From: Amoebophrya sp. A120
Taxonomy: Eukaryota; Protista; Dinoflagellata
NCBI GenBank assembly: GCA_905178155.1
Contig: CAJINV010000010.1
Span: forward strand, 1,222,709 to 1,286,708
Length of the DNA stretch: 64,000 nt
Direction: 5' to 3'
The notes under the pieces were generated by a model that saw only the letters and a list, made by a program, of their open reading frames with translations, ran no database searches and was not told where the DNA came from. The first letter of the stretch is position 1, and every line of letters starts with the position of its first letter. Both the position numbers and the translations under genes were made by a program. Positions 6,001 through 45,700 of this stretch are shown piece after piece.

Positions 6001-9000
6001 TGCAAACGTAATTTGGTAGTCGCACTAGTAAATTGTAACCATGCATAACAAATCTCATGTCTTAGCCAGATCCGCATTCCAAATTGCATTTTTTCTCTTG
6101 GAAAATTTGTATTGCAATTTTATCTACAAGAACTACTACGATATTTTTGCAATGCATAACGGACAGAGAGCTGGTGGTGCAACTGCAGTGACCATTGACG
6201 ATGAAAAAATCCGGGATGACCGTCTGCCGCCCGGGGTGAAAATGATGTATTTCGAAGGCGTTCAAGCGCACCAAAATAATCCGAGCAGTACAGACAGTAT
6301 GGGACCACAAGCCGCAGTCGTGTTGACCGATGCGACCCCAGGCAGCACACCGGGCGAAGATCGCGAGGTATCCTGAGCGAAAACGTCCCCTGCGCAAAAA
6401 CGTTCTAGAAAATGCTTCTCATGGGGCCCCGCATGAGAAAAATTTTACGCATGCTGATTTGCATGACAACGTATGAAATGGGGACGTTTTTGGATAGGAT
6501 ACGAGGACGATCTTCTGTGCGAGAAGAAGGAAGACTACTGTAAAGCAGTCCAAGAGCAGTCCTTCAGTATCGAGCCCGGGCTGATCAACGAAGTAAAATC
6601 TGTGGTTTGCGCCGATGGCTACGAACCCTTTGCCGCGGTGAAAATTGTACCTGGATCGATGGAACAAGTGGAAGACACTGGTGTTCCAAATATCAACAGC
6701 CAGATCGGACAGGAGGAGGACGACGCAGAAGTTTCATCTCCCGTGATTATCACTGCGAAGCCAAAAGAGCACCAGGTCCGCTGCGCACCGTCCGCCAAGG
6801 ATCCCCAAAACCTCGGAGAATATTTCGGCACCGACCTGAAAAAAGCGTGCGTGCCCAAGAAGAATTACTGCCCCGATTTGTCGAAGATTGTGGATCCAAC
6901 GACGGGCGAGAAGACGTTGCTCACACCGTTGCAAAACAGCCAGATCAACGAGGAGAAGAAGGTGAGTTGCGCCGTCGGGTATGGTTGTGCGGAATGTAAT
7001 ATGAAAAGGCAATTTTTGTTGAAATGCGTATCAAGCATAAGCAACGTAATTTCATCATCAAATGCAGCATCTTCGGGTACTACCGATGTTATTACCGGTC
7101 AGTGGCAATTAGCGGAGAAGTCCATGCGAGGGAACAAGCCGATTTTTGAAAACCGGAACCCTTGCAAGCCGATCGTCAGCTACTGTCCAAAGGACCCGCA
7201 GTTGGCGCCGTTCGGCGGGCCGGTTACGAAGGAAATTGAGATCTTCGACTTGAAAAAGCAGCTCGGGGAAAACTTCTGCAAAAACGACGAAGATATCGGG
7301 TTCCGGCTGAATCCGAATGAGGCACCGATCCGGGCGGAGTTGAGCGGGCCGCTGGGTGGTAGAAGTACAACTGGTTTGACGACTTCTATCGACGAAAGTA
7401 ATAGTGCCCTGCCAGCTCCACCGGCCCCTTACATTCTGCAGTGCAAGCCGAAATCGGATCAAGTCGGCGAATGGCGGGTAAGAGTCACCGCTTTCCCCAG
7501 CATCCCGCCGATCGCATTGTCCGATTTCAAACTTTGCTTACCGGCGAGTTGTGGGGCGAATGTCGTTACTTACAGCGGATTCGGGCCGACGAAGGAGGAA
7601 ACGGGGACGAAGAAGTTTCCGAAGGGGAGTGTTGAGAAAATCCAGTGCCCGGTTGGGTTTTCTTTGAAGAAGGACTTGGAGAGTTTGATTGAACAGATTT
7701 TTCCAGCGACCACGACAGGAGAAAAAAACTCAAAAACCGACAACAATAAGAATAAACTCCAAGCCACACTGAACAGAGACACTAACACCGTCGAGCTTCG
7801 CTGCAGCCAGCACATTGAAAAGCCGACGGAAGATTTTCTCTCCTCCGCACTCGATCCCGACTTCTACTGCGAGCCGAAGAGTTGCCAAGCGGGAAAGATC
7901 ACGAACGGGGAGATTCTCGACACGCACATTTTCGGCGAGCGCGTCTTCCCGAAATGCGATCTGGGTTTCGCGGGGAAGCCCTGCATGTGTGCGGCGAATG
8001 GGGAATTCGTGTACTTGCCGGCGACGACAAATGAGAAAAACAACGACAAATTCGGCGGAGAATTCGAAGAGGAAGAGGAGGAACGGAACAGGCCGTGGAA
8101 TTTCTTCGGCGGCTTCGGCAGTGGGGGAAAAACCGTCGATACAACCGCCGTGTTGCAGCAGGCGGACACGGCGGGAACGAGTTTAGAGCCTTGTGCGTGT
8201 AAGCTGTCCAAGTCTTTTTGCAACGAGCGGTCGGTCCCAGATTTACCCTTGCAGGGGAGGAGATTGACAGGTTTGGGCGATCAACCTGATGTAGCGCCTG
8301 GTCTTCAAAAGCAAAACCAGCGCCAGGCCGCTGTACAGGAACCTCGAGGCTTGCGGTTGAGACGTCGGCTGTTTGGAGACGAGGAACAAGGAAATCAGAT
8401 CGTCGCGGGGGCCGGCGGGGACAGGAAGATTTACGGCTCCTTCCGCCCCTCCATTGACGCGGCACTGGCGGAGACGAGGTACTATCACTGTCCGGATAAC
8501 ATGGTTTTGCCGAATAACCAGCATTTTGTCGAGGTGAAATGCATCGAACCGACGGAATCAACAAGCAAATCGAAGAAAGACCAGCATAAACGAGTGCAAA
8601 GCACGTCGAGTCCCATCGGGCAATATGTCCTCTCCACCACGAACGAGAAGTTTGATTTGAAGAATTACCAGTGCTCCGCCCAGCGGTGCCCGGAGTCCTT
8701 GGAGCAGTTGAAAAAAGTCGGTTACGAAATCCTCGACACGAAAGACAACACCTGCAGCGACGTATCCACTACAAATATGTCTGGGTCTGGAATAAAAGAG
8801 CGAATTTGTGATGCATGTTGCAGCCGCCCACACAAAAATCTGTGTTGCATGTCTTGCACAAGATCCCCACTTCTGACCATGTTGCCGAGAAGCGATTTGT
8901 CATGCAGACTAGGTATCACCATTTTTCACCAATAGGAGGCAGAACCTGTGATGCTAAGCCCTGCATTCCAGATTTTGTTGAGCTTGGAAAAATTGCATGA

Positions 9001-12000
9001 CAAATCTCGCAATCTTGCAGACCCAGACATGCGTGCTATCCATACGCCTCCGTCGGGGGCATCTGCCAGCTCCGCTGCGAGGGGGCGGACGAAGCTTGGG
9101 AGGTGTTTACGTGCAGTGACAGCGGAGAAAATGTTTCGGATCAGAGTCATGTTGGCGGAGGCTCGGCAGGACAGCAGGGGGCCGCTTCTACTAGCAAAAA
9201 CAAGTACAGCTGGGTCTCGAAGGACACGAAGGTAAAGTACAAGATCGATCTGAACCGCTGCCAGTCGCCGATCACGCTGATGTATCAAATGCAAAAATGT
9301 CTGGGTCTGGAAGAATGCAAGTTTGTCATGCTTGTCTGGCATGACTCCAGAATCTGTGTTGCATAGGCACGAAAAGGCCCTCGAACCTGTCATGCAAAAA
9401 CGCAGTTTGCCATGCGGAATACGTAAGACGTGGCAGCCAAAGGGTTTGTCATGCATAGCTGCGTACTGCAGTGCTTCTATCATTCACTTTTAGCATTACA
9501 AGTTTCCAGACCCAGACATATTTGCAGTCCATATGATGCTGCAAGACGCGATGACGAAGGAACCTGTTACGTTCAGCCAAATCGACTCTATATCCTGTGC
9601 AAAAGTATCGTACTCGTATTGCAATCATGCATTACAAATCTTTCTCTCCAGGTAAATCAGCACTACAAATTTTATTTCTCATGCTGAGGAAATTTGTGAT
9701 GCATTTATAAGAGTGCGATACTTTTGCAGTGCATACTCTATCGAGATTGAGAACGAACTCTACGGGAACCGAAACCTCCAGATCAACACGAAGCAGTTGG
9801 CGAAGAAAAACCGCGCCGTTTTCACGTGGCAGCAGGGCGACGTGGGGCAGTTGGTTTTGTCCCCGAAGCAAACCGCGGAGGCGCAGACCGGGATTCAGTT
9901 CAAGCAGGCCAGTCAGCAGTACGGTGAGCAATTTATCGCGAAGGATTTGGCGAATCCAAACCGGAAAATGCTGTTGTTCCTTCTGGACCGGGTTATGGAC
10001 CACGGAGACGTCAACGAAGACTGCACGTTCGCCGGGGAAATTTCCTCCTTCCGCGCGGTGCTCTGGTGGGACCAGTACCCGAAAGATTTGGATCTGTACG
10101 CGACCTACATGGAGTGCATCGACCAGGTGTACGATCTAGAAACCGCGATTGCGGATTCCCACGAGTTCCTCTCCTTCGGGGAAACAAAATCGACCTCGAA
10201 GGGCGGGCAGAGCAACGGTGACGGGCAGGTCCACATCAACTACCCGCGGATCACTGACGATGCGATTGAGGCGGACTCAGGTACCGCGGGGAAAACGACA
10301 GACCTGTGGATCTGGTCGGTCAACCCCACGCCAAGTTACGCGATTTCGTACCAAATGGGTTTAGTCGTTGGGAAATCGGGAAAGCCGGTGTACAGCCGGG
10401 CCACGGGGACGGGGCATCCTTATCCTGTGTAAAACCGTCCCCACCTCCCCGTGGTCAAAATGGCAGATCTGCTACACAAGTCAAGAAGGTTTTGCTGTTG
10501 CGCATGACAAGTGTAGTCGCGCGCAGCTGGTGGAGTAGCTGGTGCAGTCTGTCGCATTGCAAGTCAATTTTTTTATGCTGATTCGAGCATGACAAATTTC
10601 CTGATAGTGTTGGAAATGCCCGTTGTATATTGAGGTGCGCATGAGAGACAATTTGGGCACGCAGATTTGCATGACAAGCATGGGATGTTGGGGACGCTTA
10701 TTGTCAGGATAATCCCCGGGAATTCGCCACGGATGAGTTTGACGAGCTGAAAAAATGGTACAAAATATCAAACAAAAAAAGTTCGTCACGATCACTCATG
10801 CGCAGTTTTGCAATACAAAACTTTCTGTCATGCGTCAAAATGCATCACGGCCAAACTTCAGAAGGGGTTTCCTTTGAGTGTTTCTGCAATACAAGAAAAA
10901 CCTGTGATGCTGGAAAAGTTTCTCATGCAAAGCCTGCAAGTTAGTGACTGTGACAAACTTCTTGCCTTCCATACAAAAAGTACCCAGACGTGGAAAAATT
11001 GCCGTCTTTTTACCTCCCGTTCGCGAAAGGGATATCAAATGCAAAAATGTCTGGGTCTGGAAGAATGCAACTTGTCATGCTAAATCTGGATCATGTATTA
11101 AAAATCTGTGTTGCATGATTTCCAAAAGCTGTCCACTTTTGACCTAATCGAGAGGCAGTTTCTCATGCAGGATAGGCATGATAGAACTCTCACAGAATCT
11201 GTCATGCTATTTCCTACATACCAGGCCTCATGGGTCATGAAAAACCTGCATGACAAGTCTGGCACTCTTCCAGACCCAGACATTTTTGCATTTGATAAGG
11301 GAGCAGTGGTGGCATCAACTCTGGTGCAGCTGCAGGCGGAGCTGCTACTGCAGGAGACGACGAAGGCGGCGTCTCCTCTGGGTCGGAGAGCGATAGTAGT
11401 CCCGGGGCCCCGGGAGCAGGTGGGGCAGGAACAACATCTTCGCAGAACACCGTGATGAAAAAGCAGGACCTCGCCGCGCGGAAGCACCGGGCGGCTTTTG
11501 GCAACCCCATGACCTTCTTCGCGGACAAGAAATTCGAGAAATTCAAGCACTACGCGACTTTAGATATCCGCGAAGCCGGCTACGACGTTTGCCCGATCGT
11601 GTCCTGTGCTTCTAAACTGCAGGAGTTGCGGTCGAGCAACAAGAAAGTGGCCATGTTTGACAAGAAAAACTGCGTGCCCACGATCAACCAGCGGTCAAAG
11701 TGGGTCTCCTGGATTATCGCAAGAAAAAACTGTTTCGCTGTGAACTTGTGATGCAGAGAATGGGGCACAGAACGAGCTGTCTTGCTACACCTGCAAGACA
11801 TTGGATTTTTTAGTGTGTTTTCACTTGGCAAGCGCGCATGCCAAATATTTGGTGTCATGTGTAACTTGTGATGCCGATCTTGCAAGATCATCACAGTGAA
11901 GCAGTTTTTTCGTGGGATATGGATCAGCCCGCTCTTATATGCTCTGCAAAAGTATCGTACTCGTAGCAATTGCTGTTATGCATGACAAATCTCTTTTCCA

Positions 12001-15000
12001 AGGTAAAACAGCATTACAAATTTCATTTGTAATGCTAAGTCGATTTGTAATGCAATTACTATATATTATATTCATGCGAAAAAAGAGGTAGACAGAGGGT
12101 AAACAAGAGGTGGCCGAGAGGTCAAAAAGAGGTCAAAAGAGGTAAAAAAGAGGTCGACAGAGGTGGAGAGGTGGCGCGGGACCCCTTTCGAGAGGGTCGG
12201 CGAGAGGGTGCGCGAGTATAGCCCGCCGAAGGACCCACCTTAAGGCGGCGCCTAAGTGCCTCAGAGGGTGCAGAGAGGTCACAAAGAGGGGGCGCGAGAG
12301 GTCGACAGAGGTCGAGAGAGGTGGCGCGAATAAGGGCCAACCTCTCGCGCACCCTCTCGGCCACCTCTGGGCCACCTCTGTCGACCTCTACCCTCGAGTA
12401 TAGCCGGACTATTAGCGGGGACCCCCAAAAGAGGTAAAAAAGAGGGTCTGCGAGAGGTCTGCGAGAGGGTAAAGACACAAAGTAGCGGGCGCGAATCCGC
12501 ATGGGAGTCCCCATATTTAGCGTCGCAGGCTCTTCGCGGACTTGTTTTGTCCGGCGCCTGTCCCCACCACCCTCTCGCGCACCCTCTCGCGCCACCCTCT
12601 CGCGTCACCCTCTCGCGCACCCTCTCGCGCCACCCTCTCGCATCACCCTCTCGCGCACCCTCTCGCGCCACCCTCTCGCGCGACCCTCTCGCGCCACCCT
12701 CCCGCGCCACCCTCTCGCGGCGGGCGGCTTCTGTTCGCCCCCGGTGTTCTTTGCAGTTGCTCCCTGCGCAGAGCGCCCACAGGCGCGGGAGGCGCGCAAG
12801 TAGTCCTGCGGGTTGGCGCGGCGCAAACTCCAGTATGCTTCGTTGCGCACAGGCCCGTGGCGTTGTGGTCCGATCGGCAAACTGTCTTGCCCCGGTCCAA
12901 CAGCCTTGCGCTCCGGCGGCAGCCGGAGCATGGCTGGTTCATACTAGTACGATACTTTTGCAGTGCATATCTTAATGCATCTGGAGACCACGTACGACCG
13001 GAAATTGAGCGGCGGTGGGGCCGCAAAACTATATGCATTGTAAAAATGTCTGGGTCTGGAAGGTTGGAACTTGTAATGCTAGCTTTCCATACCTAGAAAA
13101 TCTGTATTGCATAACCAACAAAAGTCGCAGCCTCTTTTGTCAGGCAAAAACGCAGTCTCTCATGCGGATTGCCTATGAGAAAGCGTTTTGGGAAGTTGTC
13201 ATGCCGGACTGCATTCGAAAGTGTTTTCATCATGCACATTTTAGCATCACAAGTTTCCAGACCCAGACACTTTTTGCATTTCATAAACTACCTGCAGTAG
13301 TACAGTCTTCTTCGTCCGCAGATACTGAAAAGTTTTTCACCACTCGGCTGCAGAAAAGTCTGCAGGTTGAGCAGGAGAAGAAGCGTTTGTTGGTAGAGAA
13401 GGGTCAATTGAACAAGAAAACTTACGAAAAATTCTTGAAATCCATGTCCATGTGGAAGGCCAAGGGGAACAGTAAGAGAGTGCACAGCTTGCCCTCTCCC
13501 TCACTTGTCATGCAAAACCCCGAATCCAAGCGCTTCCCGGTGGCACTGTTTGCATGACACATTCTGGAAACCCAAACAGTACTACACGACGCGCATGAAT
13601 TATTTGTCATGCACATGCTCTACGTGTGCTCGGTTTCTATTGCTGTTCATGCAATACAAACGAGGGGGATGGGGAGTTGTTGTGCACTCTCATAAACAGT
13701 CGCTTGGAGTTAGAAGTGGACCACCGCGACGGCTTCGGCCCGGAGACGATCACGATGACCAATGTGCCTCTATCCTGTGCAAAAGTATCGTACTCGTATT
13801 GCAGTCATGCATTACATTAAGTTAAATCCGCATCACAAATTTTATTTCTCATGCTGAGGAAATTTGTAATGCATTAGCATTTATACGAGTGCGATACTTT
13901 TGCAGTTCATAGCCTCCGGGGCTGTATAAATTCGGCGTGCACGCTTTTACGGAAGATATGTACTTGCGGGATGCGACGCCGACGGTAGTTATGGGTTCTT
14001 CTATATAATTCCAACAGTTACAGTATCAGTACCATGAGAACATCAAAGCCAAACTCTGAAGCTGCAAGATTAAGCATGAGAAGAACTCGCTTCGGAAAAA
14101 CAAGAGCAATTTTCTTTCGTACGATATTTTTCCCCTATAAAAATGACCAGGTGAAGTTTTGGTTTGGCGACACGGTGTTGATTCATTGCAAACTTGACCG
14201 CGACTCCTGCGACGACCCTCAATATTCGGATGTCCGCTGGTGGAGCGTCGCGACGGTCCTTATCCCCTAAAAATGTGCCATCCCCATCCGATTTGTCATG
14301 CAAAGCATATAGGAAACTCTGTGTCTGTCATGCAGAAAATGGATGGGGAGCATTAATTTTCACCCAATAGTCATCGTGGAAGAGCTCCCGACGAAGACCA
14401 CCGACCCGGTAAGCAAGCAGCAGAAGCATATCCTATGTAAACACCGTCCCCATCCCAGCCATAGTCAAGATGGAAAATCTGCTATACAAATCAAGCAGAT
14501 ATGGTTGCTGCGCATGACAAGTTTGGCTCCGTAGTGAAATTCTGTTTAGCTAGCTCCAGCAGCATCACAGATCTAGAATATCATGCTGATTCGAGCATCA
14601 CAAATTTCAAAACGCGACGAGAAAACGCTTCTCATGGGGCTTTGCATGAGAAACATTACTATCTATTATATTCATGCGAAAATATGGGTTTGGAGAGGGT
14701 AGACGAGAGGTGGCGGGGAGGTGGAAAAGAGGTCAAAAGAGGTGAAAAAGAGGTCGACAGAGGTGGAGAGGTGGCGCGGGAGGTCATTCGGGAGGGTGGC
14801 CGAGGGGTGGCGCGAGTATAGCCCGCCGAAGGGGTCGCCCTTTGGGGCCGCTAAGGGCCTCGGAGGGTGCAGAGAGGTAAAAAAGAGGGCAAGCGAGAGG
14901 TGGACAGAGGTGCCGAGAGGTTGCGCGAATAAGGGGACCCCTCTCGCGGACCCTCTTGGCCACCTCTCGGCCACCTCTGTCGCCCTCTACCCGCGAGTAT

Positions 15001-16222
15001 AGCCGGATTATTAGCGGGGACCCCCAAAAGAGGTCAAAAAGAGGGTCTGCGAGAGGTCTGCGAGAGGGTAAAAACAGAAAGAATTGGGCGCGAATCCGCA
15101 TGGTGCTGCCCATATTTCGCATTGCAGGCCATTCGCGGACCTGTTTTGCCCGGCGCCTTTCCGTGCCACCCTCTCGCGCACCCTCTCGCGCAACCCTCTC
15201 GCGCTACCCTCTCGCGCCACCCACTCGCTCTACCCTCTCGCGCCGGGCGGCTTCTGTTCGCCCCCGGTGTTCTTTGCAGCTGCTCGCTGCGCAGAGCGCC
15301 CACAGGCGCGGGAAGCGCGCAAGCGGTCCTGCGGGTTGGCGCAACGCAAACAGGCGGCAGGAATCCAGTACGTTTCGCTATGCGCAGGCCCGTGGTGTTG
15401 TGGTCCAATCGGCAAACAGTCTTGCCCCGGCCCAACAGCCTTGCGCTCCGGCGTTAGCCGGAGCATGGCTGGCACTTATCATGCAGGTTTGCATGACAGC
15501 AGCTATGGGGCGGGGGCGTTTTTACATAGGATAAAGCAAAATTACCGCGTCAAATTACTCCAAAACGAAGCGCAGCAAAAAAAGAAGCTGCAATACCGGG
15601 ATTTGCCAACCCGGGAGGACGTGAGCCCGGATTTTGCGCGGGGAAGCTCGCTATCAAATGCAAAAATGTCTGAGTGGTCTGGGAGATTCTGAGACCTGTC
15701 ATGTACGTTTTGCATGAGCCATGATGCCTGTGATGCATGCCGTAGCATCACAGATTTTTCGAGGAGTTCTTGATGCCTATTTCGCATGACAAATGCCCGA
15801 TCCGCGTAGCAAAAATTGCATTCCCTTTGCTACTCATGCAATACAGATTTTTTTGGAATCCAAAAGCAGCATCACAAGTTTGCATTCTTCCAGACCAAGA
15901 CGCTTTTGCATTTGATACTCCCGGAGGAGGTACTACAAACGCGTGAAGCTGTTGTATGAAGACGACAGTGAACAGGAATTATCCTGTGCAAAAGTATCAT
16001 ACTCGTATAGCAGTCATGCATTACAAATCTTTTTCTCAAGGTGAATCCCCATTACAAATTTTTATTTCTCATGCTGAGGAAATTTGTAATGCCTTTATAC
16101 GAGTGCGATACTTGTTTTGCAGTTCATAGGAATCGAAATCCAACAACTGGACTCTGCAGAAGAAAACCTGCAGCTCCCACTGCTGGGTCGAAAAAGGGGT
16201 GGCCGACAAGTGTCTCGGGTGA
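1..16222 (+). CDS. Giant multi-exon Sushi/CCP-like repeat surface protein with C-terminal YfaP/DUF2135-like domain (5' end lies upstream of the window; 3,108 codons including the stop in the window)
   Basis: Frame is open from base 1. Recurrent C-x-x-G-Y...W...C...(N/D)(Y/F)CP modules. Late motifs WDQYPKDLDLY, LEVDHRDGFGPETITMTNVPPGLYKFGVHAF. Removing 23 TIR introns and one GT-AG intron (13985-14150) leaves 9,324 nt in one frame to TGA at 16220-16222. Domain names come from motif recognition only. Confidence 0.8.
2253..2505. mobile_element. Introner-like TIR intron (singleton family)
   Basis: Perfect 37-bp TIR tataacccgctcaggtgttacaatctcaaacgttaca; direct repeat tccgt/tccgt; removal gives LHSVATLKC. 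Confidence 0.92.
2570..2846. mobile_element. Introner-like TIR intron, family A
   Basis: TIR core atgtctgggtctggaag; direct repeat aacga/aacga; removal gives VETTAVC. Confidence 0.92.
3075..3213. mobile_element. Introner-like TIR intron, family B
   Basis: TIR core tgcaaaagtatcgtactcgta; direct repeat gagga/gagga; removal gives FPGEEMPVC. Confidence 0.92.
4187..4448. mobile_element. Introner-like TIR intron, family A
   Basis: TIR tatcaaatg(t/c)aaaaatgtctgggtctggaa; direct repeat cggct/cggct; frame restored. Confidence 0.92.
4992..5246. mobile_element. Introner-like TIR intron, family A
   Basis: Family A TIRs; direct repeat aagca/aagca; removal gives DFKHVPV. Confidence 0.9.
5723..5933. mobile_element. 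Introner-like TIR intron (singleton family)
   Basis: TIR core aaagtgttacagttacacatt; direct repeat atgaa/atgaa; frame restored. Confidence 0.9.
5994..6158. mobile_element. Introner-like TIR intron, divergent family B
   Basis: tatgcagtgcaaa...tttgcaatgcata; direct repeat acgga/acgga; removal gives ANGQRAG. Confidence 0.88.
6369..6501. mobile_element. Introner-like TIR intron, family C
   Basis: tatcct..aaaacgtcccc / ggggacgtttt..aggata; direct repeat cgagg/cgagg; removal gives EDREDDLLC. Confidence 0.9.
8763..9044. mobile_element. Introner-like TIR intron, family A, degenerate right end
   Basis: Family A TIR cores; only a 2-3 bp direct repeat (cg/acg); removing 284 nt gives CSDASVGGIC. Confidence 0.8.
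9283..9533. mobile_element. Introner-like TIR intron, family A
   Basis: Family A TIRs; direct repeat tgatg/tgatg; frame restored. Confidence 0.9.
9591..9735. mobile_element. Introner-like TIR intron, family B
   Basis: Family B TIRs; direct repeat ctcta/ctcta; removal gives DSIEIENE. Confidence 0.9.
10421..10711. mobile_element. Introner-like TIR intron, family C
   Basis: Family C TIRs; direct repeat atcct/atccc (1 mismatch); frame restored. Confidence 0.88.
10766..10973. mobile_element. Introner-like TIR intron (singleton, degenerate TIR)
   Basis: tat...ata ends; aagttcgtcac/gtgacaaactt inverted match; direct repeat caaaa/caaaa; removal gives WYKKYPD. Confidence 0.82.
11033..11297. mobile_element. 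Introner-like TIR intron, family A
   Basis: Family A TIRs; direct repeat aggga/aggga; frame restored. Confidence 0.92.
11715..11919. mobile_element. Introner-like TIR intron (singleton family)
   Basis: TIR core gaaaaaactg(t/c)ttc(g/a)ctgtga; direct repeat tggat/tggat; frame restored. Confidence 0.88.
11938..12969. mobile_element. Introner-like TIR intron, family B, enlarged by a nested insert
   Basis: Family B TIRs at both ends; direct repeat tctta/tctta; removal gives SPLLMHLET, in frame with the next exon. Confidence 0.9.
12055..12937 (+). mobile_element. Non-autonomous Helitron-like insert, copy 1 (nested in an introner)
   Basis: Homologous to 14655-15472. Ends in hairpin gctccggc-ggca-gccggagc followed by atgg-CTGG. 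No TSD seen. Body is gagagg/ccctctcgcg repeats. Helitron class is inferred. Confidence 0.65.
13032..13285. mobile_element. Introner-like TIR intron, family A
   Basis: Family A TIRs; direct repeat aacta/aacta; removal gives AAKLPAVV. Confidence 0.9.
13473..13694. mobile_element. Introner-like TIR intron (singleton family)
   Basis: ta(a/t)gagagtgcaca TIR; direct repeat aacag/aacag; removal gives GNSRLELEVD. Confidence 0.88.
13771..13911. mobile_element. Introner-like TIR intron, family B
   Basis: Family B TIRs; direct repeat gcctc/gcctc; removal gives NVPPGLY. Confidence 0.9.
13985..14150 (+). other. Canonical GT-AG intron
   Basis: gtagtt...accag, phase 0; joins DATPT to VKFWFG; no TIR. Confidence 0.75.
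14261..14369. mobile_element. Introner-like TIR intron, family D (109 bp)
   Basis: ccccatcc/ggatgggg inverted match; direct repeat gtcct/gtcat; frame restored. Confidence 0.82.
14429..15533. mobile_element. Introner-like TIR intron, family C, enlarged by a nested insert
   Basis: tatcctatgtaaa/tttacataggata; direct repeat aagca/aagca; removal gives QQKQNYRV. Confidence 0.9.
14655..15472 (+). mobile_element. Non-autonomous Helitron-like insert, copy 2 (nested in an introner)
   Basis: Same start attactat(c/a)tattatattcatgcgaaaa as copy 1; hairpin gctccggc-gtta-gccggagc followed by atgg-CTGG at the end. Confidence 0.65.
15652..15917. mobile_element. Introner-like TIR intron, family A (opposite orientation to 4187)
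   Basis: Family A TIRs; direct repeat ctcgc/ctccc; interior matches the reverse complement of the 4187 copy. Confidence 0.9.
15980..16128. mobile_element. Introner-like TIR intron, family B
   Basis: Family B TIRs; direct repeat ggaat/ggaat; removal gives EQESKSNNW. Confidence 0.9.
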
Positions 16223-30700: not shown

Positions 30701-33700
30701 CCCATAAAGGATGTCTTCTGATCTCGAGAACAAAAACCCGGCCTCCGCTGCCACTTCTGTGGTTGGAAACGCGGAAACCAAGGCAGCTGCTGCCGGTGCT
30801 GCTTCGGCGAAGCAGGCTTCCCCCAAGGTCAAGGCGAAGAAGAAATCCCAGAACAAGGCGGCGAAGAAATCTTCCAAGAAGAAGACTTCCCCCTCGACCC
30901 TTGTTGTTCAGGTACTACGCTGTTTTTCGTAGGTATTCTACTTGCCTTGGATTGCTAATTTGTTAACTAATTTCGCGGATAACCCCTCGGCTAAATCGAT
31001 GCCTAATTTTGCGACTAATTGCTGGATAATTTTTTGAGGGGGACCTATTCCGTATTTGTGAAGGCAGTTTAGACACAGATTAGACGGATATTTAGACACG
31101 AAATTAGATGGCCCTCGCGTCATGTAGTTGGGCCTTTCGCTCCCCTTCCCCGAATTGGGGCGCTCGCGTTTCTTGCCTCCCTGGAGCGGGAACTTTTCGC
31201 CAGCCCCCGGCTGGCGAAAATCCCCACTGGAAATACAATTTGTGTTGAATTTCCAATGGGGATTTTCACCAGCCGGGGAGTTTTTCGATTGGAAATTCGA
31301 AAAGTTTTGAACTTTTAACTTTTGTCGAGCGGGAACTGGGACTTTGTACTTCCAAAGTTCCAGTTCCCGCTCGACAAAAGTGGGGAATGATGTGAAAGGA
31401 TTTCTCTTTCAAAAATGTTGAAAGACGAGAAATCCTTTCGCATCTTTCTCCACTTTTGTCGAGCGGGAACTGGAACTTTGGAATTCCAAAGTTCCAGTTC
31501 CCGCTCGACAAAAGTGTGCTTTCGCCAGCTCCCGGCTGGCGAAAATCCCCATTGGAAATTCAACACAGTTTGTATTTCCACTGGGGATTTTCGCCAGCCG
31601 GGGGCTGGCGAAAGCATTTTCACCAGCCCCCGGCTGGTGAAAATCCCCATTGGAAATTCAAAACGTTTTGAATTTCCAATGGGGATCTTCGCCACTCGGG
31701 GAGTTTTTCGATTGGAAATTCGACAAGTTTTGAACTTCCAACTTTTGTCGAGCGGGAACTGGAACTTTGGATTTCCAAAGTTCCAGTTCCCGCTCGACAA
31801 AAGTGGGGAATGATGTGAAAGGATTTCTCTTTCAAAAATGTTGAAAGACGAGAAATCCTTTCACATCTTTCTCCACTTTTGTCGAGCGGGAACTGGAACT
31901 TTGGAATTCCAAAGTTCCAGTTCCCGCTCGACAAAAGTGGAGAAAGATTTGAAGTTTTGGACTTCCAGTCCTTTCTTTCGCCAGCCCTCGGCTGGCGAAA
32001 GCACTTTCGCCGAGAAGTCGTTGGTGAAAGTCCCGATTGGAAATTCAAAAAGCTTTGAGGTTCCAGTCGGGACTTTCGCCAAAGACTCGTTTGCGAAAGA
32101 GGAAAACACAGGGAAAAGCCGCATACCATCCGCGGAGCAACGACTCTCTCTTGTTGCGGGGCGGCTTTTTCAACATGTTTTGTGGGAGGGTTTTGCTTTT
32201 CTAGTCTCCCTCGAGCGGGAACTGGAACTTTCGAGTTGCGAAAACTCGAAAGTTCCAGTTCCCGCTCCGGTGGGAGGAAGAAAACTGGTTGCGAAAGGAA
32301 CGACGTGTGCAGATTTTGTCACATGCAGCATCTGAATTTCCACAATTAAAGAGCTTGTTTATTCATGAAAAATCTTCTCTCAGGCGCCTACCCTGACCAA
32401 GAAACAGAAGGCGGCGGCCAAACGCAAGCAGCGGCAGGCGGCCAAGAGCATCCTCGAGCAGCAGACTTCGGACGCCCTGCCGGAGAAACTCGTGGGCCAC
32501 GCCTTCAAGATGGCGCGTAAGTTGAACACCAACAAGCGTTGGAAATTCAAAAAGAGCGTGATCAAGTCCGCCTGCTGGGAGGGAAACAGAACCACCGCGG
32601 AGTACATCGCTACGGAATACATTCCCGCGTTGCGGGCTGAGGCCAAAAAGAAGAAATTGGACAAGGGGGCGGACACGAAGTATTGGATTTTGAAGCCTGA
32701 GTGGGAAAAGGCCATCCTGGCCAAGTGGACGGAGGAGCGGGAGGAGCAGGCACAGCAGGTTCGTGGACGGGTCCGCCCGTCCATCCTCCGCATCTTCAAC
32801 GACTCCCTGTACCCGACCGCGCATCTGAAGCATAAAGCGGCGCTTGCGTGGCTCCACCGCCACGCGCAGCAGGTGAAGAAATCCTTCCCCCGGTGGTTGG
32901 AAATGACCGTGAACGCGGCGGCGTCGAGCTCCACCTCCGCCCCGCAGCAGACCGTGAGAATGTACGAGGCCACTACCGATCCGCTGGACAACACGTACGG
33001 CTTCGGGCGTACTGATTTCGAGCGTGCGCTCGACCTGGCTTCGACCGGAACGGGGCAGAACTCCGGGTCTACGCCTGTCACTGCTTCGAAGAACTCCTTG
33101 TTCGCTGCGAGTGAAAGCGTGAATCTGAAATCGCCCGGGAATGAACAGACCAAACTCGATTCCACGGTCAAAACCACCCCGCCGCCGAAGCCCTTCGCGA
33201 CGGCCGGCTCCGCTGGTCCGTTGACCAGCAGCTCTGCCCCGTCCGTGTCCAACACTGTTTCGCCCGTGAACGACGACCCGCTGCTGAACAACCCGACGAA
33301 GCGTGATGGAAAGCGGCCGTCGGATGCGGAGGATGAGCTGTTGCATCGTGCGAAAAGATCCCGGAGTGCCCTGCTCCAGGCGCGGCGCACGGGCCGTGGC
33401 GCGAGGGCCCGGGCCGCAGAGGAGGACTCTGCCGCGGATGAGAAGTACGGGCTGAACGCCACCGAGATCGGCGACGTAAACTCCGGGATTTTGCAGATCA
33501 TCTGCCAGAAGGACGCGGAGCTGGGCCGTCGCGACGACCGTGGCCTCGAGGCCCTGGCCGCCTATGTGGAGGCTTCGCAAGGTAAATGCTTACTCCTCTT
33601 TCCAAACCACAAGCTGCTTCATGCTTTTTGCAAACCTAGAAGGCCTTTTTTTTGTTGTCAAACATAGACAAACGGAGAGCAGCGGCAAGTGTCCATCTCA

Positions 33701-36700: not shown

Positions 36701-39700
36701 CAAGTTGAACTGGGTGGACGTTCTGTTGTCTGACATGAACTACAAAACCTACAAACGGTACGCCGACATGGTCGCGCAATCGCAGAACAAGGCGAAGGAG
36801 TTGGAAAAACAGAACCAGGACGAAGTCAAGGCGTTGGACCGCTTCACGGCGTAGGAGGCGGAACGGCAGAAGCAGCTGACGATGAGACGAAGACTCTTTC
36901 CTATGAGGCTGTCGAGTGGTTGTGATGCACCACAGACAGCGGTAACAAGAATCACAGACAACAAACTAATATTGCGCTGAACTTCGACTATCGTTGTTGC
37001 ATGGACGATTTTGCACCTCTGTACCTGCAACACAAATTGCGCCCCACCCGAACAGAACATAATGAAACCGTACTCAAAAAAGGAAGTAGTGCAGGTGCTT
37101 GGCTGCGGCCTTCTCCCCAAACGGCATCGGCGCCTGTTCTCATTTCTTTGGTTCTTGTTTTTTCTTCCTTCCCTTCGCTCTTCTTGTCCCTGGCCCAATG
37201 GGGCCTACAACTTGGTTGCTTCCGCACTTGTGGCGGGGCAGCACACCACCTGGCGGCGCAAGTGCTTCTGTGGCCGCCCGGTGCTCTCGACCCACCCACC
37301 CACCGCCCACAGGCATTGGGGCGGGTGGCCAACAGTAGGCGCGCAAAAAATTAGGGAAAATTCAGAATTTTTTAAGCCGGGGCGAATGCCCGGGCCCGGC
37401 AGACTGAGCGAGTTCGTCGGGGAGCAGCCAGGTAAATGCAAGAGGAAAACAGAAAAGAAAAAAAGAAGAAAGAGAAGAAAAATCGGACGAAACCCTTTCA
37501 GAAACGATTCTCAGATTGATAGAAAAAGAGAAGAAGACAGCGGATCAAGGAGGGGAGGAGATGAAGCAGAGGGCTCGGGGAATAATAGAGAAGGCGACGC
37601 GACTCTTGAAAGAGGCCGAGGGATTGGACCACGACCGGGGAGAAGAGAAGAGCACAGGAATGGAAATTGATGGAGACGTAGAAAGCGCAGACGAGGGTGG
37701 AGAAATGGAAGTCGAAACGAAAAAAGAATCGGACGGGGGAGGCGAATTCTACAAGGCAGATACATACGAAGGCACACGGCGCGGATACGTTTTCAAATTA
37801 GGGAAAGCGGGGCAAGGGTATTACAAGGACAGGGGACCTGAGGAAGCCACCCGCGTCTTCTTTAGCTGCTGCGTAGGCTGGGGGGAGGATGAAAAAAGGG
37901 AGGAAGCAAGAAGAAAGAGAGCAGAGCTGGCCCCAGACCCACAAATAGAAGAGGCGTCACTAAAAAGGCAACACAGAAAAGACGAAGAGGCGACTATCAC
38001 AACAAAAAATGACGAGCGAGGAGAGGCCAACCCGTCTCCTGGGCGGCAAGGTACCGACCGACCGGGAGAAAAGGAAGAAAGAAAAAAAGAAGAAAAAAAA
38101 TTTCCGACACTGGAGGAACTACTGGGCGACGACTTTGAAACAAAGGAAGAGGAAGAGCAACAGCAAGAAGAAAGACGAAAGAGAGAGGAGGAGAGGAAAA
38201 GGAGGAGGCAGGCGAAATATGAAACCCCTCTGCAAGAAGAACTGGCGAAAATGTTCAGGAGTTTAGACGAAGAAGTTAGAAGATAGGTAGTACAGTCGAG
38301 GTTGATGCGATGAGAACTCATACAATGAACACAGTGAAGGCATGTTGCGCAAATTTAATACGTTGAGGAAACACATAAAAAAAAACTGTAAGGGAAAGGG
38401 TGGGCCGCTCTCGAAGCAAAAAAAATAAACGAGGTGGGGGGTGTTCTGGCGGATGCGGAGGGAGGAGTGGAAACGGAGAGAGTATATACGAAAAAGCGAA
38501 ATAATTCGTAAAAGATGGCACCAACGTCCCGCGCGTCTCATCTCGTCCCCGCCAGCCCAGGAGGCACGGCGCTGCTTGTCATCTCGTCCACGCTGGCCGC
38601 TTAACTGCGGCCCGGCGCTGCTATCCCGCTGTAGAGAGCTAGTCGAAAAGAGGAAAATATATCAAAGTGGTGACAGGGTTGTTATTTTAAAAGTCTGTGC
38701 TAAAGCAGCACCCCCCTCCCCAAGGGGCCCCCTCGGGGCGGGCGCGATGGCGGCTCTGAGTAGCCGGAGCCCTGGGGCCCGATTCTTCGAATACGCATGA
38801 AAAAGGTGCGCGGACTAAGGTCGGCTGAAGTGCTCGAAAGGGGTACGCTTCGGGGTTGTCCGTCATCGTAGTAGGATCATCGGGTATGATCGATAGACCC
38901 CCAGTATACGTACTAGCGCACAGCCGGCCACAGACGTAAGTTTGCGATCAAGTTTGTAAGGCTAACCCATCAAGGCCACGCCGAGTCTCCACCTTGCTCG
39001 CGGGCTTGGATGGTAAGGGGGTTCTGCCACAAGTAGCGCCCACTGGTTGTTGTTACGCGTAAGCAATCGATAACGGTTCTGCGGCTGCGGCCGGGTGGTA
39101 GTTAGGAAGTGGATCGGGTATCCACCTAGGGGTATTGGCAGAGGCTAAATCTGTTCTAGCGCCCAGGTATTGGCAGAGGCTAAATCTGTTCTAACGCCAA
39201 CCCGCCAGGAGTTAAATGGTTACTACTACTACTACTGCATGACAGAAAAGCTGGGCTCTTGAGTAACGTGCATGACAGATTTAAGAGTCATGCCAGACAA
39301 GCATGACAAACTTGCATTCGTCCAGACCCAGACATTTTTACAGTTGATACGTGTCGTGGTAGATCCAGGCACCGGTCCTCAGAAGTGTGGCAAAGATCGG
39401 GAAAGAGCGACGCCGAGGCGAAGCAAGAAAATCTGTGACAGCGATGTTGAGCTTTGTTTTGGACACGTCATTGATGTCAAGACGGCCCCGGGAGCCGCTG
39501 GGACGGCGACCGGGGAAGTACACGTGGCTTGTCGCGCACCAGTGGCAGCTCTTTCCGGCGAGCGGGAAAGGACAGATGGGCGACTGGGACGGCCTGCAGT
39601 ACAGGACAGCAGGCCTAGTACTTGCGAGCGAAGTGAAGACGCCCTAGCCCTACAGGAAAAAAATGCAGGAGCGCAATCTCCGGCAGCCTGCACAGTGGGA

Positions 39701-42700
39701 CGTGAAGCAGTCCTCGAGAAGGCTCAGCAGGCTCCAACGCTAAGTACCTCTCCCTGCGTTTATTTTCCTCCACAACGGCGAGATCAGCCGCAACATCATA
39801 ATCATGCGGCTTCTGTCCCGCCCAAGATGTTGCGCTGTCTCGAATGCGGAGAGGAAAAGCCAAGCAGTTGTTTTCCGGCGACATCAGCGGGCAAGAACGA
39901 GAAAGACACGCCGGGAGTAAAAAACAGCGTAGCCCGTGGGGGTGCTTCCTCGACGACGGGCACAGGTAATCTTAGCGCGAATGAGCAGCAGGAAGCTGTC
40001 GGTCTGGACAACTATGATACTGCTGCAGCAGGAGCAGCGACAGGGCCTAAATTAAAGGATGATCAGAGCATTGGCACATCAACATCGAGTTCGAGATTGC
40101 TTGTCTGTCACTTTTGTGCGCAGTATGGGAGATCGAGGTTGGCGAATCTGGTGCCAGCAAAGGTGCCGTTTTCTGATTTGTTGCGACAAAATGAAACTAC
40201 TAAGGATGGATCTTCGGAAGACCAGCAAGGTTGTCGCGGAAACAATTCATCATCTGCAGACGCGCAGGAGCGCACAGGGGGCAGCAGCAACAGGCGCAGC
40301 TATATGGACGTTTACATTCTGGACGACGAGGAAGTTGAAACACAGGGCCACACACTAACCACCAACAGCATGGCGCCTCCACAGCACTTGCAACTTGGTG
40401 CTGTCTTGCATAATTCCACAGCGCCTCTAATATCGTCTTCTGACACCGCCGCCCGAAATTCTACCTCGAGGATAAAAATCGACGAAAAGAACGGCGACTC
40501 CTACCTCTTGCCACCCGGCTCTGCGACGCGAAACTGCCATCCCCACGAGTTGGCCTTGAGGAAACTCTATCAAATGCAAATATGTCTGGGTCTGGAAGGA
40601 TGCGAACTTGTGATGCGTGTTGCGGATCATCCAAAAATCTGTGTTGCGTGACTTGCAAAAGGTCCCCACTTCTGGCCGTTCTGAGGGGGCATTTCTCATG
40701 CGGAATAGGCATCACCAAGGGGCTGCAGAACCTGTGATGCCAGCCCCTGCATTCCAGACTTGGCGGAGCTTGGAAAAACTGCATGACAAATCTCGCAATC
40801 TTCCAGACCCAGACACTTTTGCATTTGATAAGCTCGCAGTAACTGATTTTCATCACATGAAGCTACCGCCGCGGCTGGAAGTGGATGATTTGCTCGATCT
40901 GTCAGAGAAGCCGTTTCTTCCCGAAGCCCGGATGAATAAGAAGGAGATTGATGTTGGTAATGCTCCTGGACCTGGTGGAAATAAAATATCAAACCAAAAT
41001 AGAGTCCCCAACCCCAACTACGACGAAAAACTGGCAAAAACGCTCGAATCCGACGACTACTGCCAGGATCTCGGGCGCTTTGTCGTTCGGAATCCGCGAG
41101 TCGAAAACAACGCAGATTTCCTCCGCATGAAGCGGTTTAAGCAAAACTTACTTCAGAAGGATACCGAGGACAAGGACCTCGCGACGAATTCCCATTTTGC
41201 TGGTCCGCTCGGCAACCCGTGGACGAACCGAGGCTTACAGTTGATTCCGGTGAACGCGAAATTTTGGCTGCTGAAGGAACAGGCCTGGCTCTACAGCAAG
41301 GGCGTTTGCTTGCCTTTCATGGAGAGAACCACGGAGGTTTTCCCCTTTGTGGAAGACATCGACTTGACAAATTGTCAGTGTACCTGGGAAAACAGTGTCC
41401 CCAACGCGGTGAAGTTTTTCCTACAACCGAAAGACTCCCGGAACCCCCGGTATGCGAAGAAGTACCCAGACTTATCATTCAGTTATCAAATGCAAAAATG
41501 TCTGGGTCTGGAAGGTTGGAACTTGTGATGCTATTTTTGGAATCTAAAAAAATCTCTATTGCATGACCAGCAAGAGGAGTCTAGTTTGTGCTACGCGGGG
41601 AGGGCGTTTGTCATGCGGAGTAGGCATCAGGAAGCCCTCTAAAAATCTGCGACGCTAGGCCGTGCATTACAGACATCCTGGGTCATGCAAAAATATGCGT
41701 GACAAATCTCAGAATCTTCCAGACCCAGACACTTTTGCATTTGATATCAGTCAGGAACAAACCAAACTCTTCTTCAACCTGGCCGACAAAAAGTTTCTGC
41801 AGAAGCGGGCCCGAATCCTCGGGCGCATGTTTCCGGGCAAGAAGTTGGAGTGCGTCGTGTTCTCCTCCTCGGGGTGGTCTATATGCATTGCAAAAGTATT
41901 TGACTTACTCGTAGTATTGCAATACAAATTGGCTCAGCATGACAAACGGAACGTCTCATGCTGATTTAACTTGAAAATTGAAATTTGTCTTGCATGACTG
42001 TAATTCCTACGAGTACGATACTTTTGCACAGGATGGTCTACGGAGAAGCACAAAATGAAGATTTCGCTACACCTGGTCTGGCCACACTTGCTGGTGAACC
42101 GGGAGATTTGCGCGCAGGTCCGGGCGGAAACTCTAAGGTATTTCCGGTCAAACCGGGGACGCATGTATCAGGAAGAGTTGAAAAAGCTGGGGAATACTGG
42201 TACTGCTGTGGTTACCGTATCCATACCGGAGTGCTTGAAATTGCTAAATAGCGGCGTGTTTGACCACAAATTGGTCGCGAAAACCTGCGTTGTGCGGAAC
42301 GGGGCGGTGGTCGTTTCGAAAGTTTTTACCAGCTTGACTGAGAGCGAAAGGCAAGTCGGAGATCTGTACTTCGAAAAAGGGTGGAAAGTAGCGAAAGTGG
42401 TGCTGTTGCGAGGAGGAGGAGACGGATCGTCATCGTCCACGACCACTTCTGTTGTCCACACGGTGCAGGAAGCTCTGCGAAAAATCGAGGAAAACGTGAT
42501 CGAACTGAAGCGGCGAGGACGGGGAAAATTGAGTTGCCAGCGCCCCTCATCCGATAAGAATTCGGTCACGTCAGAAATAAACGGTACAGCAGTACGTCCC
42601 GCTGAAGACAACAAACAGAACCTCACCAAAAAATTCGAGCGCCTCGAAATCCACTTTGAGACAGATTTTTGGGCGGACATTTTTGACGATGTGATTGAGA

Positions 42701-45700
42701 AACACCGGCAGGGCTTGCGGCCTCCGTTCGCCGATAAAAGAACGTACATGATCCCCGAGAAAATTTTTGAAGCGGATTTAAAACACTTTGCTACTGATTT
42801 TGGCTACTTCTACACCGGCGACGAGGTCGGGGGAGCGGGAGGGGACAGGAGGAAAAAGAAAGCCGGAATTATTCGCCCCGATGCCCCTCCGAACCCGAAG
42901 GCTACTTCTATCTCCACTGCTTCTGGGGGTGCTTCTCGTCTAGCACGAGACGAGGATCAGCCGGGAGGGGAGAGGATGAAAGACAAAGCCGGAAAAATAA
43001 ATGTCAAAGATGGTCCGGTCGTAAGGGCGGGTGCCAGCACATCCACCGTTCTCCCTCCAGCACAAAACCACGACGATCAACATCCGCAACGTCGTCAACA
43101 GCTCCCCGCGAAAAAACTAGTGTCCAAAGCCAAAGTCGAGCTGGTGTTCAGGAAAGCGGGAGGGGAGAAGAGGAAAAAGAAAGTCGGAATTATTCGCCCC
43201 GATGCCCCTCCGTACCAACGTGAATTTTGTCTGCGGCTAAAAGATTCAAAAATTTTGATTTTGAGTATGGCACCAAAGGAGTCTGGGCCGTCCCAGTCCC
43301 GGCGGTCTCGAAGGTCGCAGGGGGGCTGAGCAGGGACGCCTCCACCGGAAAGAATTTCGCCCACGGTAGCTGGCCATCGTCCGCATCTCGCGTCTCTACT
43401 TTCCTGCCCTTGTAGGCCCGGCTCCCCATTCTTCGGCTGTCCCAGTTGGGGCAGTCCGGAGGGGCCTGAGGGTGAGGGCGCAGACAAATTTACGCAAAGG
43501 CCCAAACGCACTTAGTAATGGCCTTGCGCAAATTTGTCTGCACCTCCGGCAGGGGTGCTCTCCTTGGACCCCCCCTCCCCTAGCCGCAGACGAATTTACG
43601 CAGCTCCTTTCTGGTTGGCCTTGTTTGCATGTCCATCAGCGCCAAAAGTTGGCACGCTTCCCGGGGGTATTGCGCCCCGTATTGCGATTTGGCGCTGATG
43701 TTTCAATGCCTCCCCTAATTGGTCATCCACTAAAAGCAGGGGTGGCCCTGCAGGTGATGTAGCAGAAATGAAGGTGGCCGCGCGCCGTTGCAAAAGCAAA
43801 TTTTTGAATTTTTCAGCCGCAGACAAAATTCCTCTTGGTACTCCGAACCCGAAGGCTACTTCTATCTCCACTGCTTCTGGGGGTGCTTCTTGTCTAGCAC
43901 GAGACGAGGATCAGCAGCAAGCTGAACTACAACTCCAGCGCTCCGCAAAAACATTATTGTCCAAGGCCAAAGTCGAGCTGGTGTTCAGGAAAAACCGAGG
44001 TCGCTTCCTGTACCGTTCTCAGTACATTGACCTCTGTAAATTAAACCACTTGAACCGCCTCACCCCCTCGTGGTTCAAGAAGCGCAGTCAGGACTACTCG
44101 CCGTTCGCGAGAACCTTGACGGAAGAGTGTCGACCGGTCTTGCCCTACGGGATTTTTGAGTTTGGAGGCTCTACTGGTTCAGAGCAAATGATAAATCAAT
44201 CTGATTTTGACTACGACGACGAACTCTGGGATCCCTGTTTGCCGGAGGGGAAACTGCCGGAGCAGAAAGTTATTGTCGATCCGGATTCGGAAACGATTCA
44301 AAATCTCCGACATTTCCACAACCGACAGAAGCCGATTGCTGGTGTCGAGAAGGCGGGAATGGTGAAAACGGAAGTACAGAAGATGAAAACTACAGCTGCT
44401 GGTGACCGTGACGCGGAAACGGCCGGGGCAGGGGGCGCGGGGACGATAACGATATCGAACAAGAATACAACATCCGGGTCTACAACAAGAACGCCAGACT
44501 CAGAACAAGATGGTGACACAACAACTGCACAAGCTGGGGGACAAGACGAAAATCGAAATCCTCTCAAGGTGGATACTCGGGCCACCCTTGTTCTATCAAA
44601 TGCAAAAATGTCTGGGTCTGGAAAAATGCAACTTGTGATGCTGCATTTGGATTCCAAAAAATGCTGTATTGCATGATTAGCAAATACGGGAATGCAATTT
44701 TTGCTACGCTGAGAAGGCATTTGTCATGCGAAAAAGGCATCAAGAAGCCCTCAGAAAATCTGTATTGCTAGGGTATGCATCACAGACATCATGGCTAATG
44801 CAACACGTGCGTGACAAATGTCAGACACTTCCAGACCCAGACATTTTTACATTTGATACGTTCATCCCCCATTACACCATTCCCAGCACCGGATGAGGTC
44901 TTTCACGAAGCAGGACCTGGAAAACACTTTGAAATTCATGATCAAGGGGACTTGCCGCGCACCGAAGGGTGCGCTCCCCTCGCCGGAATTTGTTTCGCCC
45001 GCAACCTGGCTTGCGGGGAGTCGGTTGCCGCGGAGCTTGGTCGCAGCGTTAGGGTCGTTTGATACAAAAAGTTCCGTTGCTGTGCAGGGGCCTCGTGTTG
45101 GTGTTCATGATGATGATGCCAGAGGTGGTGCTGGCTGTAGTGATTCTACCCGCGGCCCCTACTTACGACCCGGTAAGCCGGACAGCTGTGTCCGACGGTT
45201 CACCGGTACCATTGCAGAGTTCCAAGACAACATACAGGAAAGAATCCAAGAGCTGCAAGAATCACCGGCGAGCTACATAGTCGGCGACTTTCTCCCGATA
45301 CACGACCCGGACATGCAACCAGTCGTGCATCTATGCTGATGAAAAAGCGACATCTTTCGTCCAATCTGCACATCGCAACCCGCCTTGAATTTTATTTGCA
45401 GCATACCATGATGAAATGTAAAACTTTGCAAATTTCGATTTCTTGATGGCCATGATCAGGTTGCAAAATAAGCCATTTATGGATTAAGAAGTGCGAAGGC
45501 GTAGTTGTGAAGTGGTTGCCGATTTATTATTTCCGTAGCATAGCACCACGCGATCGCCAGTTTCGTATACGAGAAGTTAGGTAACGAGCAGGCCAGGGCG
45601 GTGTTTTTGAAAAGAGTTTTTGAGAAACGACGGGAGTTAGAAAGACAATCAAGGTCCTCGTGTGGTACGGAAAGACGAACTACAGCTACAACTTCTCCAG

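Follow-up and report, generated by a model that had tools for sequence, protein, structure and literature searches.

An introner-like inverted-repeat element and its empty site side by side in an intragenic duplication of Amoebophrya sp. A120

Within one exon of a gene of Amoebophrya sp. A120, in the 64,000-nt stretch of DNA analysed here (the window), a short coding segment occurs twice, once intact and once split by a 628-bp element. The locus raises the question of what this element is, whether it is an intron or a disruptive insertion, and whether it arrived before or after the segment was duplicated. The explanation that we favour, with a probability of about 80%, is that a non-autonomous DNA transposon with terminal inverted repeats (TIRs) and a 5-bp target-site duplication (TSD) inserted into copy 2 after the duplication, and that it is likely spliced out together with one CTCCG, restoring the reading frame.

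The original prediction of an empty and a filled insertion site in an intragenic duplication was borne out letter by letter (Table 1). Copy 1 reads GCCCCTCCG and then AACCCG with a single CTCCG, whereas in copy 2 the CTCCG is doubled and encloses an element that has TA at either end. The peptide GIIRPDAPPNPKATSISTASGGAS is present twice only when the element and one CTCCG (633 nt) are taken out; left in the reading frame, the element leads to a stop at 43327. Long TIRs and internal inverted repeats had also been claimed, and both were found. The TIRs align without gaps over 43 bp (alternatively, over 51 bp at 86% identity with one gap), and the internal repeats pair 43477-43497 with 43524-43544 and 43634-43646 with 43688-43700. 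The core motif of the TIR occurs five times within the element, and the larger internal inverted repeat consists of copies of it. The description of the element as poor in CATG holds against the short element families (one occurrence, or 1.6/kb, compared with 17.9/kb in 30 short elements) but not as an absolute statement, the element-free part of the window having just 3.4/kb. Likewise, it is longer than most elements of the window (133-300 bp) but not than those at 11938-12969 (1032 bp) and 14429-15533 (1105 bp).

Table 1. Coordinates of the element, the duplicated segment and the host gene (positions in the window).
Feature	Position	Strand	Remark
Reading frame of the host gene, 1492 codons without a stop once five elements and one TSD each are removed	39263..45339	+	
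Short-family element, host gene	40568..40830	+	TSD copies differ by one synonymous letter
Short-family element, host gene	41484..41746	+	268 nt skipped in one X6 contig
Short-family element, host gene	41882..42035	+	159 nt skipped in one X6 contig
Duplicate core, copy 1, 128 nt, 4 differences from copy 2	42834..42961	+	All four amino-acid changing
Empty paralogous site, single CTCCG	42887..42891	+	
Duplicate core, copy 2 (43155-43212 plus 43846-43915)	43155..43915	+	Split by the element
Left TSD, CTCCG	43208..43212	+	
Non-autonomous TIR element, 628 bp, TA..TA, 56% GC, no coding capacity found	43213..43840	+	Likely non-canonical intron (633 nt including one TSD)
Left TIR, 43 bp, 38/43 identical to right TIR	43213..43255	+	G43243 private to this copy
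Internal hairpin, arms formed by TIR core motifs (two copies)	43477..43544	.	Third internal copy at 43586
Another internal inverted repeat, with arms of 13 bp	43634..43700	.	
Right TIR	43798..43840	-	
Right TSD, CTCCG	43841..43845	+	
Short-family element, host gene	44594..44858	+	TSD copies differ by one synonymous letter

Neither state of the site is an assembly artefact; both were found in DNA-like contigs. In X1, a sequencing run that we read as DNA from its even flank depth (17.6-20.2) and contigs of up to 95 kb, record 1 (42700-42916, 0 differences) spans the empty site and record 2 (42907-43273, 0 differences) enters the element; X1 may be the sample from which the window derives. Record 1 continues for 25 letters to the right of the empty site, which is below the 31-letter rule of our contig matching. 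The duplicates share just 28 nt upstream, so that words of 31 letters discriminate copy 1 from copy 2.

The first ~30 codons of the host frame lie inside a further element that ends at 39349, and its true start is not fixed. Among 7987 scored candidates, the sole homolog of this frame was P0001 from Amoebophrya sp. AT5.2, and P0001 as a query returned no further relative. The alignment covers residues 293-516 of P0001 upstream of the duplication (E 2e-47) and residues 534-649 downstream of the element (51% identity, E 5e-27). The duplication is derived in the window's lineage, because the 17-residue linker of P0001 holds a single PNPK, against two in the window. A Pfam search of 18 window frames gave nothing above the cut-off; P0001 has a faint match to AEP_C962R (E 0.047), also below the Pfam cut-off. 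As a separate observation, the host protein carries an SLHLVW motif at 42037-42100, which we take to be typical of archaeo-eukaryotic primase-like domains. Elsewhere in the window, at 2253-6501, removal of eight elements and one repeat copy each leaves a single frame of ~2400 codons.

The 5-bp repeat had been interpreted as a target-site duplication, and both the empty paralogous site and the other elements of the window support this. A scan for TIR ends that ignored the flanks, started from 12 seed elements and paired neighbouring ends, gave 32 pairs in the window. A perfect 5-bp direct repeat flanks 26 of them and a perfect repeat of 3, 4 or 6-9 bp none of the 32; at least four of the five letters match in 31. 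Fourteen of the pairs had previously been picked by a search that required a repeat, and the other 18 include 12 with perfect 5-bp repeats and 17 that match in at least four letters, where ~0.1% is expected per site. The sequence of the repeat varies from site to site. According to the published rule, A120 inverted repeats begin with TAT, followed by 7 nt and at least three A (PMC7789003). This pattern, TAT-N7-AAA, is present at 55 of 66 element ends in the window, while both ends of the 628-bp element read TAC-N7-AAT and so depart from it.

Some further observations were made across the window. The TSD copies are mismatched in six elements (10421, 15652, 19121, 40568, 44594 and 46177), and of the seven letters that differ, five leave the amino acid unchanged in the likely host frame (binomial p 0.02-0.08, depending on the null; the frames for 10421 and 15652 are uncertain). 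Either TSD copy may therefore be able to reach the mRNA. Eight TIR ends stayed unpaired (8763, 10766, 13032, 15980, 22358, 39349, 48389 and 57881) and are probably further elements with one diverged end. A nested palindromic repeat array at 31187-31930 has neither TA ends nor CATG and is unlike the introners.

The evidence for splicing of the 628-bp element is thin but specific. A 245-nt contig of run X4 (record 13, depth 3.2) joins 43018-43207 to 43841-43895. The joint skips exactly 633 nt, five letters fit on either side of it, and both parts have 0 other differences from the window. The contig holds T43184 and T43891, letters that are absent from copy 1, and is therefore not a misplaced copy 1. 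Of the ten sequencing runs, no matching one is on record as RNA, which says nothing about expression, and the RNA status of X4 is a guess; it may be DNA. The probable-RNA runs X4, X6 and X7 come from one sample, and the focal site is covered in X4 and not in X6 or X7, so that the joined form was seen in one of three such runs and in one contig. In X6, contigs skip 41479-41746 and 41875-42033, two neighbouring elements of the same gene, as expected of host-gene mRNA. X1 (single-copy flank depth as above) and X3 gave no 633-nt joint, and their contigs enter the element. Of the raw RNA runs, X8 matched the short-family repeat alone and X9 gave 0 reads; with none in the host exons, neither run is informative on removal.

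The sequence of the element is consistent with a non-canonical intron. Its six possible splice registers are CT-TA, TC-AC, CC-CT, CG-TC, GT-CC and TA-CG, depending on where in the repeat the cut falls; none of the six is GT-AG or GC-AG. A GT-AG register is possible in just 2 of the 21 plus-strand elements of the window. In the predicted fold the ends of the element are paired (z -5.6; 0 of 20 shuffles were as good). Taken with the X4 contig, we conclude that the element and one CTCCG are likely removed by scarless splicing. Two further observations concern other elements. The right end of the element at 41882-42035 reads CAT rather than TAT and the element is still skipped cleanly in an X6 contig, so that a perfect TA end is unnecessary for removal. 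In X8, another sample with the same species label, ~90 raw RNA reads match the short-family TIR at 41484-41533 at 90-95% and share one foreign flank; a related element is apparently kept in an expressed transcript of that sample.

Relatives of the 628-bp element were found in X1. Three left ends stand in foreign flanks. A 584-nt contig at depth 34.5 corresponds to 43244-43827 and differs at 6 positions, and a left end differs at 1 of 61 nt. A complete relative of 1001 nt has 37 differences across 193 nt at its left end and 9 across 80 nt at its right end, with 728 other letters in between. The differences in the 584-nt contig likely stem from a sister copy, because at 43364, a position where this contig departs from the window, the window letter is kept by an X3 contig whose anchor is the left flank. 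The sister would be ~1% away as seen, or perhaps 2% if merged contigs hide half of the differences. With a sister that is ~98-99% identical the family looks young, as had been supposed. Contig depth summed over the right TIR reached 322, compared with ~19, a figure that we do not take as a copy number. The asymmetry of the TIR at TIR positions 7-9 and 27 is common to other copies, and only G43243 is private. We considered the TIR mismatches (5/43) as a sign that the element predates the duplication, and rejected this reading because four of the five are common to other copies. Aligned in register with the TIR of the commonest short family, the two ends match at 16/28 and 18/28 positions beyond the TA (shuffle p 4e-4 and 4e-5). 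The TIR is a diverged relative of that short-family TIR, and because the two align in register, one enzyme may mobilize the 628-bp family and the short families.

If the element were a disruptive MITE that is kept in mRNA, the X4 contig would have to be DNA of a relative without the insertion. The guessed status of X4 and its single contig are the points in favour of this, but the same sample lacks three different elements at once, the exon pieces listed for it have 0 differences from the window, and at a likeness of 80 X4 has no coverage within the element. Moreover, the stop that retention introduces would cost the protein a block that is conserved with P0001 at 51% identity. Retention is therefore very improbable, and the element is likely an intron, as had originally been supposed. 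The order of events is less sharply constrained. Between the duplicate cores there are 4 differences in 128 nt (3.1%; 2 of 113 in the inner part), which, set against 7-13 differences in 615 nt between the element and its sister, gives a Fisher p of 0.10-0.51. The earlier suggestion that the intron was gained after the duplication hence stands as the simplest order, with which the divergence is compatible, but these values are no proof of it. We consider this order highly probable because it takes one event, compared with two for a loss, and because the copies lie in tandem.

The element might instead have come first, copy 1 having been emptied through spliced cDNA (as source or by conversion) or by precise excision following a duplication that included the element. 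In that case the empty site would reflect the mRNA rather than the pre-insertion DNA. Dinoflagellates are known for the recycling of mRNA-derived genes, which would suit such a history, as would the small distance between the duplicate cores, which is not above the upper estimate for the element against its sister. However, two steps are then needed, duplication and exact loss, and the tandem arrangement of the copies, at a distance of 321 bp and with a tail in common, has the pattern of a DNA-level duplication. The near-identical sister and the TIR asymmetry, which is a family trait and not decay, also argue against this order, and PNPK is uninterrupted in P0001 at the protein level. We judge it improbable that the element was there first.

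The element had been proposed to be closer to an autonomous parent, and nothing was found in support of this. None of its eight frames of at least 50 aa matched Pfam, and no trace of a transposase was found in it. The longest frame (130 aa) gave three matches among 1.84 billion proteins, P0002-P0004, which we rejected as spurious; they are proteins built of tandem repeats or a subtilase, and their scores add up over 4-13 weak stretches. A scan of metagenome and viral contigs with the TIR pattern gave 0 hits. A shorter TIR pattern had one 25-bp match, L001. It lies within a long frame on an unrelated contig and has no second TIR to pair with, and we attribute it to chance. Phages gave no match to the element, and an Rfam match to mir-641 (E 0.54; 20 bits, where the cut-off is 100) was rejected. 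The two elements of the window that exceed 1 kb have short-family ends and a non-coding interior unrelated to that of the 628-bp element, and its TIR is a diverged relative of a short-family one. As an aside, these two elements have different TIR types and a common 895-nt, GC-rich and repeat-laden interior at 79% identity, which suggests that interiors and ends may be swapped between families; their sizes recall the published fam103 (1143-1191 bp), a likeness of size alone.

The family could still be a recent internal-deletion derivative of an autonomous transposon, in which case its TIR would lead to the missing transposase. It is low-copy and young with a long TIR, its interior is evidently exchanged in the 1001-nt relative, which shares both ends, and the A120 family fam38, as tabulated, is similarly built and has ORFs similar to Copia/Gypsy (PMC12130899). 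Against this stand the frames without a Pfam match, the repeat-summed matches of the 130-aa frame to unrelated proteins and the size of the longest complete relative observed, which is that of 1001 nt. Length is also no marker of ancestry, given that the two >1 kb elements share a non-coding GC-rich interior. We regard such a derivation as unlikely.

The properties of the element agree in large part with those of the introners that Farhat et al. (2021; PMC7789003) described from Amoebophrya, which have inverted repeats and 3-5-nt direct repeats, given as 5 bp in the legend of their Fig. S19. Like these, it has non-canonical splice sites, a 5-nt direct repeat (CTCCG), a hairpin and no internal transposase, and it is repeated at other loci, as seen from the three foreign left flanks, the sister and the 1001-nt relative. 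It differs in its 43-bp TIR (8-20 nt in Amoebophrya introners) and in its length of 628 bp, where the non-canonical introns of A120 average 240 nt (PMC7789003). An empty paralogous site 321 bp away also sets it apart from the introners as that paper describes them. Their criterion is excision backed by at least three RNA reads, compared with one contig of depth 3.2 from a run guessed to be RNA here. Apart from such read-level support, the element behaves as an Amoebophrya introner by their definition. The same paper reports loss of U1 and no transposase in A120, states that its authors could not distinguish gain from loss and that introner origin and splicing are unknown, and argues against a general transposase-mediated spread (PMC7789003). 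More widely, introners with TSDs and TIRs and scarless removal are an established class (PMC11282704; PMC9860276; bioRxiv 10.1101/2020.10.14.339549). A search for an empty and a filled introner site paired in an intragenic duplication found none within the limits of the literature searched.

All 58 A120 rows of file sd07 of Gozashti et al. (2025) were compared with the element, by description only. Their fam38 (5 copies, 808-810 bp, TIR 49-53 bp) is listed with '5-bp TSD, TA/TA Termini', as here (PMC12130899). The table assigns it to Ginger, whereas the text describes it as without Ginger termini and TSDs. It is longer than the 628-bp element and is reported to have ORFs similar to Copia/Gypsy, which the paper identified with RepBase; here 0 of 8 frames matched Pfam. 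In size and TIR length the element resembles fam65 (625-627 bp, TIR 42-46 bp, 4 copies; 5' sites gt:2/at:2, all 3' sites non-canonical), whose splice sites would suit a GT..CC register. The annotation of fam65 is Mutator, with termini GG/CC and a TSD of 8-9 bp (PMC12130899), in contrast to the TA termini and 5 bp that the empty site fixes here. It would be either a different family or a misannotation. Among known transposons, IS3EU/GingerRoot share the TA..TA termini, and integrase-like DDE enzymes make duplications of 4-6 bp (PMC10045372). The TSD of IS3EU/GingerRoot is usually 6 bp, unlike the 5 bp of this element, and none of the 32 paired elements has a perfect repeat of 6.

These comparisons suggest how the favoured explanation could work. 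A transposase acting in trans would have inserted the element at a 5-bp staggered cut, and since the TIRs align in register, this enzyme would probably be the one that moved the short TA..TA families of the window. Removal may be guided by the TIR hairpin, which would draw the TSD copies to each other in the manner proposed for Amoebophrya introners. The departure of the TAC-N7-AAT ends from the A120 consensus and the argument of Farhat et al. (2021) against a general transposase-mediated spread both count against this scheme. A more far-reaching idea, which we put forward tentatively and hold to be possible though doubtful, is that all TA..TA introners of this genome, short and long, form one system. 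In it, a single IS3EU/GingerRoot-like integrase would make the 5-bp cut, and the TIR hairpin would serve the cell as the reference from which removal is measured. No splice dinucleotide would be fixed, and the position of the cut would float inside the duplicated 5-mer.

The phenomenon, including a 5-bp TSD with TA/TA ends, has already been published, and the present case refines the picture and does not overturn it. What it adds is that a single exon holds both states of the site, empty and filled, at a distance of 321 bp, which fixes the ends of the element and the 5-bp duplication without an outgroup. By this standard, the catalogued fam65, which is of the same size, may be misclassified. 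If all TA..TA introners were indeed one system, the young low-copy family described here would be a lead to the missing transposase, and the mismatched TSD pairs, with their mostly synonymous letters (5/7), would map the cut. For tests of splicing in Amoebophrya, the empty and filled pair is a built-in natural control.
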